Shown: piece after piece, positions 27,215 through 29,260 of the stretch
Numbering within the stretch: the stretch's first letter is position 1
Layout of the letters: each line of letters starts with the position of its first letter
Assembly (NCBI GenBank): GCA_000165345.1
Contig: CM000430.1
Span: 544,001-608,000, forward strand
Reading direction: 5' to 3'
DNA: 64,000 nucleotides
The notes under the pieces: generated by a model
The model's input: the letters and a program-made list of their open reading frames with translations, nothing else
The model's database searches: none
What the model was told of the DNA's origin: nothing
Translations under genes and position numbers: made by a program

Positions 27215-29260
27215 ATGACAGCTAATGGGAATGATTTAGAGCTTATCACAAGCATTCTATCTAAGAATCCACTAATTCATAGGCCAGACATTGTATTTGG
27301 AAAATTGAGTGACGGCCTAGATTATTGTATATTTAACAGTGAATCGCAAAGAAACAGTTTCCACTTGAATCTTGTCTTAAATACGGGCAGTATTCATGAA
27401 GAAGAGTTTGAAAAAGGATTTGCGAATTTTGTCCAACAATTAATTTTAACCGAATTAAATAAAGAGCTGTTGAGAATTCGTACAGAGCATTTAACAAACA
27501 TAACATCATCAACTGATTTTCACTGTACAATTTTCAACATATACAACGAAGTTGAAAATACCAAGCTTAATGACTCAGAACTTAGAGCAACTTTCTTCGA
27601 TGTATTAGAAATTTTTTTGCTAACTATTTACAAATTCCGGGAGAAACTATCTTCGTCTCCAGATGTATTTTCAGACAGAATAGAAGAAATAAAAAATAAA
27701 ACATTTGATATCATTGAAAAATCTGATAAATCTGTAGCAAACTATATCGAAAAGCAAATTTTCTTGCAATTTCATAGAAATACTCTATTACCTAAGAGAT
27801 GGCCAATAGGAGAAAAGTCGAGTATTGAAAATATCACAGTAACAGGTTTATTAAAGTTTATTAATAAATGGTATCTTCCGAATAATATGTGTCTGTTTAT
27901 TGTAGGAGACATTCCTGCTTCTAATGAACTTTTGGCAAACCACTTATCTAGTTTTGTTTCTGGAATTAAAAGTTTAAATCTTGAAAAACGAGCCTCTGGT
28001 ATTAATTTATATGAAACTTCTAGTTCCCACAATATTTTTTCTGTGAAAGAGCGTATTGGACACAAAACTATAAATAACGCACTAAATATTATTGGCAAAT
28101 ACACAGGTTCAGATTTTCAAAGGGAAGTTGTCATTCAGCATCCAAATATTGATCAGGTCTCAATTTCTATTGGAGTAAAACTAGAGATTTGCCCATTAGT
28201 AGATGAAGGTGAGATTTTTATGAATGCAGTTGACACAATAATATCTAACGCTATACATACAAAGTTATTGAATTCACTATCTCAATTGGCATTTGATGAA
28301 GAATCAACATCTATATCTTGGGACTTTTACAATTCTTCTCGTGAAAATTGTGGTTGGAATACATTTTCCATTGTTAGCGATGAAAAGAACTGGAGAGCAG
28401 TTTTTAGATTAGGCATTCAACAGATTGTATCTATATGCAATAAAAAAATGTCTATGGAGGAGTTTGAAGAGATAGTATTAATTACTATCTCTGACTACAA
28501 AAAATCGGCAGAAGAAGAATTAGGAGATGACCCAAAGTTAGTTCTTGATGGTTTGATTGATGATTGGCTTTGCGGAAGCATCCCATTGAGTAAAAAGCAA
28601 GAATATCAACTATTTTGTAAAGTTGTAGACCGGATCAATCCCGAAATGATACAATGCAGGTGCAAAGCTTTATTTAGCCACATCATTTACTACTTTGACG
28701 AAAATGATCATTATAATAAAGAATCTTCCTCTACAGGATGTATTTTTGTGAGTAAGCCATTACATAATTCTTATCAGAATTCAGAAATTGATCAAGAAAA
28801 CTCTATAAATACTTCGAACAACATCAGCAAAGCTCCAGAATCAGAGTCAGAATTTATCAAGTCACTACTTGAGGAATACAAGACATGTGTTTGTAAAGAT
28901 CTTAAATTATCTGTTGAATCAGCTAAAAGTTATTCTAATGAAGTTTTTTTTGAGAAAAATAGCTACAAAATTGAGAGAATGTCAGAAAGCTTTGAATTTG
29001 GAATTTGGGATGCGCTCAAGGCATCTACATATATTACTATAGATAAGATTTTTGACTCTATAAGAACTAACTTTAATTCGCTTGTTGGCGGCTTAGTAAA
29101 TTCGGATGAAAGCATTGAAAATTTGAATGGCAAATATTCCATAAAAGAGCTTGATTCACTTGCTGAAAGAATCAAATTTTATTCAGATAATTTTCAAAAT
29201 GATTCATGCGAGCAAGGAAGCCATAGCTTACCAAATGACATTTGCGACTTAGGTCTTTAA
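27215..29260 (+). CDS. Insulinase (peptidase M16)-like protein with degenerate zinc-binding motif (probable pseudopeptidase)
   Basis: 681 aa. The N-terminal segment NTGSIHEEEFEKGFANFVQQLIL aligns by eye to the M16 signature GSRYE....G(I/S)(A/S)HFLEHMxF, with the HxxEH positions reading NFVQQ. The rest of the protein has no recognisable motifs. Confidence 0.45.
   Translation: MTANGNDLELITSILSKNPLIHRPDIVFGKLSDGLDYCIFNSESQRNSFHLNLVLNTGSIHEEEFEKGFANFVQQLILTELNKELLRIRTEHLTNITSSTDFHCTIFNIYNEVENTKLNDSELRATFFDVLEIFLLTIYKFREKLSSSPDVFSDRIEEIKNKTFDIIEKSDKSVANYIEKQIFLQFHRNTLLPKRWPIGEKSSIENITVTGLLKFINKWYLPNNMCLFIVGDIPASNELLANHLSSFVSGIKSLNLEKRASGINLYETSSSHNIFSVKERIGHKTINNALNIIGKYTGSDFQREVVIQHPNIDQVSISIGVKLEICPLVDEGEIFMNAVDTIISNAIHTKLLNSLSQLAFDEESTSISWDFYNSSRENCGWNTFSIVSDEKNWRAVFRLGIQQIVSICNKKMSMEEFEEIVLITISDYKKSAEEELGDDPKLVLDGLIDDWLCGSIPLSKKQEYQLFCKVVDRINPEMIQCRCKALFSHIIYYFDENDHYNKESSSTGCIFVSKPLHNSYQNSEIDQENSINTSNNISKAPESESEFIKSLLEEYKTCVCKDLKLSVESAKSYSNEVFFEKNSYKIERMSESFEFGIWDALKASTYITIDKIFDSIRTNFNSLVGGLVNSDESIENLNGKYSIKELDSLAERIKFYSDNFQNDSCEQGSHSLPNDICDLGL

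Follow-up and report, generated by a model that had tools for sequence, protein, structure and literature searches.

The subject of this analysis is a 64,000-nt stretch of DNA (assembly GCA_000165345.1, CM000430.1, positions 544,001–608,000), referred to below as the window, in whose numbering all coordinates are given. One of its genes, INS-5 (cgd2_2760) of Cryptosporidium parvum, encodes a protein that is probably the dead half of a four-domain M16 peptidase, retained as a non-catalytic cytosolic binding module. This account as a whole is favoured at a level well short of certainty. That the open reading frame (ORF) at 27215–29260 is the published gene cgd2_2760 and that its product is catalytically dead is, taken together, almost certain.

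The identity of the gene follows from two kinds of match. The ORF listing contains an unbroken, ATG-initiated frame of 681 amino acids (aa) at this position, and its translation agrees with EAK88724.1, 'insulinase-like peptidase [C. parvum Iowa II]', residue for residue (100% identity). Ni et al. (2020, PMC7225287) published primers for cgd2_2760, and all four fit the ORF without mismatch: the cloning pair at its opening codon (27215) and its final codon (29257), the quantitative PCR pair at 28994 and 29213. Because of the protein identity and the exact primer matches, the window is assigned to C. parvum chromosome 2 and the ORF to INS-5, which provides the first feature:

27215..29260, plus strand: complete coding sequence of cgd2_2760 / INS-5 (681 aa and stop), based on the ORF, protein identity and primer matches.

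Loss of the HxxEH motif has reportedly been noted, from the 2004 genome paper onward, in more than half the members of Cryptosporidium's INS family. The C. parvum family comprises 22 genes, with HxxEH kept in 10 (PMC8092296), and INS-5 is one of three M16B-type proteins of the species (PMC8175991). When INS-5 was characterised in 2020, it was said to lack the active site, to contain 'only one inactive M16 domain' and to be probably devoid of classic insulinase activity (PMC7225287).

Membership in the M16 family is evident in both sequence and predicted structure. The Pfam Peptidase_M16_C model matches aa 206–420 significantly (E 9.4e-14; 52.1 bits against a cut-off of 23), and the N-terminal Peptidase_M16 model, over aa 44–107, stays below its gathering score (15.7 vs 22.3 bits). 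A phmmer search against PDB sequences finds Escherichia coli PqqL at E 5.8e-11 and pairs GFANFVQQLIL of INS-5 with GVAHFVEHMMF of PqqL; a profile of ten orthologues raises this match to E 5e-15. The AlphaFold model used was computed from a 36-sequence alignment that includes remote relatives, a run on ten orthologues having been discarded at a predicted local distance difference test score (pLDDT) of 47. In the retained model, pLDDT is about 90 across aa 5–256 and 300–520, and these segments form two complete M16 alpha/beta domains. Foldseek comparison with the PDB returns PqqL at E 1e-20 and the isolated PqqL N-terminal half (6oft) at E 3e-20, with a template modelling score of 0.70 on the target. 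Other bacterial M16 proteins, FusC, subunits of the mitochondrial processing peptidase (MPP) and bc1 core proteins also match (MPP and bc1 at about 1e-15), and the E values for the PqqL N-half, bacterial M16s, MPP and bc1 core together range from 1e-20 to 1e-14.

The model presents INS-5 as a two-domain 'half-clamshell' of the M16 fold (pitrilysin/insulinase, clan ME), with two full predicted M16 domains (aa ~5–520), contrary to the single inactive domain of the published description. The parts of this half are the following:

27287..27982, plus strand: domain 1 (aa 25–256), degenerate and formerly catalytic, aligned with PqqL residues 8–61 and 165–232 and with the N-terminal domain of 23 active relatives.
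27983..28108, plus strand: interdomain loop (aa 257–298, 42 residues), poorly conserved and of low confidence (pLDDT 26–40).
28109..28786, plus strand: domain 2 (aa 299–524), of the M16 'inactive' type, with the Peptidase_M16_C match, pLDDT of about 90 and motifs shared with myzozoan proteins.

Domain 1 is modelled with pLDDT of about 90 and scores only 15.7 bits against Pfam Peptidase_M16. The loop is 28% identical in C. parvum and C. muris and is not glycine-rich. A preliminary description of the ORF had taken it for an M16-like protein of 681 aa and had called for a Pfam search, a structure prediction with fold comparison and an alignment against active enzymes. All three were carried out, and the M16 assignment stands on the significant Pfam, PqqL and Foldseek matches. 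The greater length remarked on there is accounted for by the 42-residue loop and a disordered tail of 157 residues.

The zinc-binding and catalytic site of this fold has been lost in INS-5. The layout of the site in M16 enzymes is HxxEH...E (PMC12731061), and in active members the downstream Glu ligand lies within E-x(6)-E, some 75–83 residues past HxxEH. Residues 58–78 of INS-5 read GSIHEEEFEKGFANFVQQLIL. Alignment with PqqL, with which the 23 active relatives agree, shows the three HxxEH residues changed from H to N, from E to Q and from H to Q, and the codons at 27425–27439 bear out the preliminary reading of the motif as NFVQQ with both His residues and the Glu replaced. Both sites are located as follows:

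27425..27439, plus strand: NFVQQ (aa 71–75) in place of the HxxEH zinc-binding and catalytic motif, from codon translation, phmmer and alignments.
27680..27718, plus strand: IEEIKNKTFDIIE (aa 156–168) in place of the E-x-E-R-x-A-V-L-S-E motif, from translation and alignment with the 23 active relatives.

Across ten aligned Cryptosporidium species, gastric ones included, the site follows the consensus N-F-[VIS]-Q-[QNK], in which N71, F72 and Q74 are invariant and position 75 is Q, N or K; the equivalents of H71, E74 and H75 are replaced in every species. Also lost is the second motif, the source of the auxiliary Glu and the third zinc-ligand Glu in active enzymes, which extends the pseudopeptidase reading of the preliminary description. 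The third-ligand column falls on I166/I167 (the alignment is uncertain by about one residue there), and the adjoining E168 varies among species between E, K, Q, Y and C. Because of this column and the variability of E168, no zinc ligand is conserved in INS-5. A deletion of nine residues, relative to the 23 active relatives, directly follows the active-site helix. The strand motif S-T-D-F-H-x-T, the counterpart of N-A-x-T-D-F..T in active enzymes, is kept.

M16 function also needs two halves (PMC12731061), and the second half that closes the catalytic chamber (domains 3–4) was not found in INS-5, whose chain ends with domain 2 and an unrelated tail. Since zinc ligands, catalytic Glu and the chamber-forming half are all missing, INS-5 cannot act as an M16 protease, and M16-type zinc binding and peptide hydrolysis are impossible for it. 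In IDE and MPP-beta, the same exchange of the catalytic E for Q is the classical means of inactivation (PMC8092296; PDB 1HR7/1HR8 titles). The idea that INS-5 keeps some hydrolysis through a non-canonical site is hardly credible. Nothing speaks for it directly, the nearest hint being that E168 adjoins the third-ligand column in C. parvum; however, this residue is K, Q, Y or C elsewhere, the three HxxEH positions are replaced throughout the genus, and the second half is absent.

The origin of this inactive half can be approached through its relatives. An exhaustive hidden Markov model (HMM) search with INS-5 covered 1.84 billion representatives and gave 1947 matches. Among the top matches, HxxEH is absent only in Cryptosporidium orthologues, including those of the gastric C. 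andersoni, C. muris and C. serpentis (NFVQK). The next matches are Vitrella brassicaformis CEM28165.1 (1262 aa; 226 bits), Hammondia hammondi KEP63999.1 (1669 aa; 180 bits) and transcripts of Selenidium pygospionis (148 bits), followed by glaucophyte, cryptophyte, red-algal and amoebozoan proteins of 1000–1260 aa, and in all of these HxxEH is intact. Positions 10–525 of the INS-5 profile map to the first two domains (about 520 M16 residues) of four-domain relatives of 1000–1700 aa. BLAST queries with the C. parvum protein and, independently, with that of C. muris both gave Hammondia and Vitrella as the best matches outside Cryptosporidium. The coccidian orthologues, among them Toxoplasma gondii ME49 XP_002368963.1 (1692 aa) and proteins of Neospora and Besnoitia, carry HLLEH and a disordered N-terminal extension of about 450 residues and have no signal peptide. 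A word-indexed homologue search with a mixed alignment yielded almost no additional relatives.

Domain 2 carries marks of this relationship. Its motifs NSSRENCGWN, KQEYQL and DDWLCGSI correspond to NS[AS]RENC[AG]WN, [KE]QEYQL and DDW..G.I, which are common to INS-5 and the myzozoan proteins only, and the domain scores 210 bits in the HMM comparison with Vitrella and at most 68 bits beyond the Vitrella/Hammondia pair. The M16 proteins of Vitrella, T. gondii, Hammondia and Selenidium share these motifs and the absence of a signal peptide with INS-5; however, they keep HFLEH or HLLEH, the Glu motif and the C-terminal half, which INS-5 does not. INS-5 appears to be the truncated and inactive counterpart, by orthology, of a four-domain myzozoan M16 that is still active, and not a member of the MPP/core, SPP or secreted M16A INS lineages. 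Orthology with the Vitrella and coccidian protein is well supported but not proven, and the inactivation would predate the split between gastric and intestinal species.

E. coli PqqL (PDB 6OFS/6OFT) and Pectobacterium FusC (6B03/6B05), both M16B-like proteases, are the best sequence and structure matches, and aa 25–256 and 300–520 of INS-5 superpose on the N-terminal half of PqqL. Both enzymes, with HFVEH...E167 in PqqL and HMVEH...E165 in FusC, are periplasmic, active and built as a four-domain single chain with a linker (PMC12731061); none of this holds for INS-5. Descent from the apicoplast stromal processing peptidase (SPP), as a leftover in a parasite that has no plastid, was considered and rejected. 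The signature of the SPP clade, H..EH[VI][ST][FY][LM]GS.KR followed by a short loop and NAYTDFHHTVF, is found in plant SPP and in T. gondii TGME49_253890, whereas neither INS-5 nor its nearest relatives have it. Plant SPP and TGME49_253890 belong to the same broad PqqL-like M16 neighbourhood (plant SPP match 3e-20), but INS-5 lacks both the signature and the plastid leader and groups with the other clade.

Several observations on these relatives are recorded in their own right. At least three large proteins of T. gondii bear the label 'M16 inactive domain-containing', and they differ in fate (PMC7670262 supplements): TGME49_253890 is assigned to the apicoplast (hyperLOPIT) with a CRISPR score of -5.93, TGME49_214490 to the cytosol with -4.1, and the third is TGME49_227948 (PMC7670262). 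The length of XP_002368963.1 (1692 aa) fits none of TGME49_214490 (1353 aa), TGME49_227948 (143 kDa) and TGME49_253890 (1604 aa). As regards naming, the relatives in T. gondii, Hammondia and Besnoitia are called 'M16 inactive domain-containing protein' though their HLLEH is intact, and the C. hominis orthologue of INS-5 (OLQ16226.1 / PPA65592.1) is named 'putative zinc protease PqqL' despite having no zinc site.

Known non-catalytic M16 proteins offer a further comparison. The preliminary description had pointed to alpha-MPP and the bc1 core proteins, and the parallel is sound as an analogy and fails as a lineage. Like INS-5, these proteins have two M16 domains without a zinc site, are non-catalytic and give significant structural matches. 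However, their M16 lineage is a different one, they are mitochondrial proteins with a presequence that work in pairs, and alpha-MPP has a glycine-rich loop; INS-5, which has neither presequence nor glycine-rich loop, would derive from the N-terminal half of a PqqL/FusC-type M16. The N-terminus of INS-5 is acidic, lacks a presequence and is aligned to the start of the mature M16 domain. The preliminary description had already noted the lack of a mitochondrial-looking leader, and the N-terminal 25 residues (two basic, three acidic, no hydrophobic stretch) agree with that; no signal peptide, presequence or transmembrane segment was found in the protein.

The same comparison suggests that INS-5 could be a non-catalytic subunit that pairs with a separately encoded partner, as alpha-MPP does for beta-MPP. 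The partner could be an active half, for which the beta-MPP-like INS-23 (cgd5_3400) is an example, or a descendant of domains 3–4. The two-half requirement of M16 function (PMC12731061) fits this idea, as does the fact that INS-5 looks like a stable half, comparable to the PqqL N-half that was crystallised alone (6oft). C. parvum also has other two-domain M16B proteins, the alpha-like INS-21 and the beta-like INS-23 with HFLEH (PMC8175991). However, INS-5 corresponds to the half that normally bears the active site and not to the helper half. The alpha-MPP-type glycine-rich loop is missing at aa 257–298, and the alpha role is already filled by INS-21 (PMC8175991). For INS-21 and INS-23, a location in micronemes and dense granules is reported (PMC8175991), while INS-5 has no signal peptide. 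In agreement with the preliminary description, no other M16 gene was detected in the 64-kb window, either by Pfam on ORFs of at least 200 aa or by tblastn with the relatives, which also covered a gene resembling the C-terminal half; a partner gene is thus missing from the window. Pairing of this kind is considered unlikely.

The gene shows the marks of maintenance. Orthologues of 668–705 aa occur in at least 15 Cryptosporidium species or lineages, and both C. hominis and the distant C. ryanae keep the order SMC, INS-5, Brr2-like helicase. Relative to C. hominis, the ratio of nonsynonymous to synonymous substitution rates (dN/dS) of INS-5 is 0.20 overall, 0.13 in the M16 half and 0.59 in the tail; the flanking genes give 0.15 (SMC) and 0.19 (helicase). 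Relative to C. ryanae, dN is 0.37 for INS-5 and 0.31 and 0.39 for the neighbours. Overall identity between the C. parvum and C. muris proteins is about 40%, yet N71, F72 and Q74 are fixed across the genus. INS-5 is under purifying selection at a housekeeping-like rate. The view that it is a functionless, decaying relic can draw on the missing catalytic residues, the missing half of the protein and the fast evolution of the tail; against it stand the intact ORF of constant length throughout the genus, the dN/dS of 0.13 in the M16 half and the detection of both transcript and protein, which leave this view with next to no probability.

The location of the protein is relevant to another explanation, in which INS-5, as other INS proteins do, would serve invasion after secretion or exposure on the surface. 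Sporozoites contain the protein, and anti-INS-5 antiserum lowered the infection of HCT-8 cells by 17–38%, which the authors read as a role in invasion, with caution about the assay (PMC7225287). However, immunofluorescence in the same study showed a diffuse signal throughout the sporozoite cytoplasm, and the mRNA peaks at 36–48 h and not in the invasive stages (PMC7225287). INS-5 has neither a signal peptide nor a transmembrane segment, and its housekeeping-like rate and conserved internal synteny are unlike those of the subtelomeric, fast-evolving secreted INS genes. An invasion factor is therefore considered very unlikely, and INS-5 is maintained and expressed, its location being probably the cytosol.

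Beyond domain 2, the protein continues in a tail, listed here with two of its features:

28787..29257, plus strand: Cryptosporidium-specific tail (aa 525–681, 157 aa), largely disordered, with many Ser, Glu and Asn residues and with pLDDT below 50 outside one helix.
28835..28918, plus strand: the lone confident helix of the tail (aa 541–568), from AlphaFold.
29123..29173, plus strand: tail island LNGKYSIKELDSLAERI (aa 637–653), whose NG-Y-S...LD..A core is retained in all species, gastric ones included.

Short conserved islands of this type look like short linear interaction motifs. The C-terminal DICDLG motif (29237–29257) is limited to the intestinal clade, and the proteins of gastric species stop before it. 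The tail was also considered as a remnant of domains 3–4, and this was rejected since it has no similarity to those domains in any of 149 relatives (E >=0.4).

On this basis, the following course of events may be proposed. The ancestor would have been an M16 protease with four domains in a single chain, of a kind that chromerids, coccidians and archigregarines still have in active form, and INS-5 would stem from its N-terminal half. Before the radiation of the genus, domains 3–4, both His ligands, the catalytic Glu and the downstream Glu motif would have been lost, and the disordered tail would have been gained. The former substrate groove, formed by the invariant A70-N71-F72-x-Q74 helix and the edge strand S-T-D-F-H-x-T, may now hold a peptide or protein partner, while conserved islands of the tail, such as aa 637–653, may recruit other factors. 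Whether INS-5 acts as such a putative non-catalytic binding or scaffold module, with the mechanism inferred, is regarded as an evenly balanced matter.

Several points weigh against this account. In a neighbour-joining tree of the N-terminal half, the INS-5 clade forms a very long branch attached at the midpoint root. Because this tree left the branch unplaced, the placement of INS-5, and with it the orthology to the Vitrella and Toxoplasma proteins, is drawn from score ranking and shared motifs. The invariance of N71 and Q74 could be explained by structural packing alone. The antiserum effect on infection described above was read by its authors as a role in invasion, and the term 'cytosolic' is based on sequence features and one polyclonal immunofluorescence study. 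Each rival explanation is rendered less likely by the evidence set out above.

A more specific version of the binding-module account is that INS-5 is a natural substrate trap. As the sole Cryptosporidium descendant of the non-secreted myzozoan M16, it might still bind the ancestral ligand, uncleaved, in its A-N-F-x-Q groove, while the tail would couple this ligand to a process of late development. The binding of an uncleaved ligand is suggested because the groove is frozen across the genus with the very E to Q change by which IDE and MPP are inactivated in experiments, and the late role because the mRNA peaks at 36–48 h. This version is rather unlikely as it stands and is offered tentatively.

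The surroundings of INS-5 deserve a brief account. The window is AT-rich (GC about 32%) and contains long unbroken housekeeping ORFs, including SMC, a Brr2/Ski2-like double helicase, nucleotide-sugar transporters, a P-type ATPase, WD40 proteins and SYF2. Two paralogous nucleotide-sugar transporter genes lie in tandem at 67–1359 and 1894–3138, both on the plus strand (Pfam Nuc_sug_transp, E 1e-73 and 2e-69); the C. parvum genome consists mostly of single-copy genes, so this arrangement is unusual. The minus-strand SMC gene shows strongly negative skews at 24001–26000 (GC skew -0.21, AT skew -0.27), which probably reflect purine-rich coding sequence for a Lys/Glu coiled coil and not a separate feature. 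At the corresponding C. hominis locus (1938–3375), a Tam41/Mmp37-like gene is called between an MTPAP-like gene and SMC. Its product of 386 aa over a span of 1438 bp probably implies an intron, and the counterpart interval in the window (about 20450–22700) has no ORF of at least 200 aa, which fits a spliced gene missed by the ORF listing. Three long ORFs have no Pfam match at E<=1e-5: 9406–10893 (plus strand, 495 aa), 13113–16124 (plus strand, 1003 aa) and 56908–58692 (minus strand, 594 aa).

The pseudopeptidase reading of INS-5 has been in the literature since 2020 (PMC7225287), and a scaffold or chaperone-like function is put forward by inference, here as in that literature. What the present analysis adds is the two-domain architecture with a vestigial catalytic domain, the lineage of the protein, the age of its inactivation and the selective regime under which it evolves. 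These refinements are useful for annotation, and the name 'putative zinc protease PqqL' is misleading for the orthologues. For the biology of the parasite, the results argue against INS-5 as an invasion antigen or as a protease drug target.

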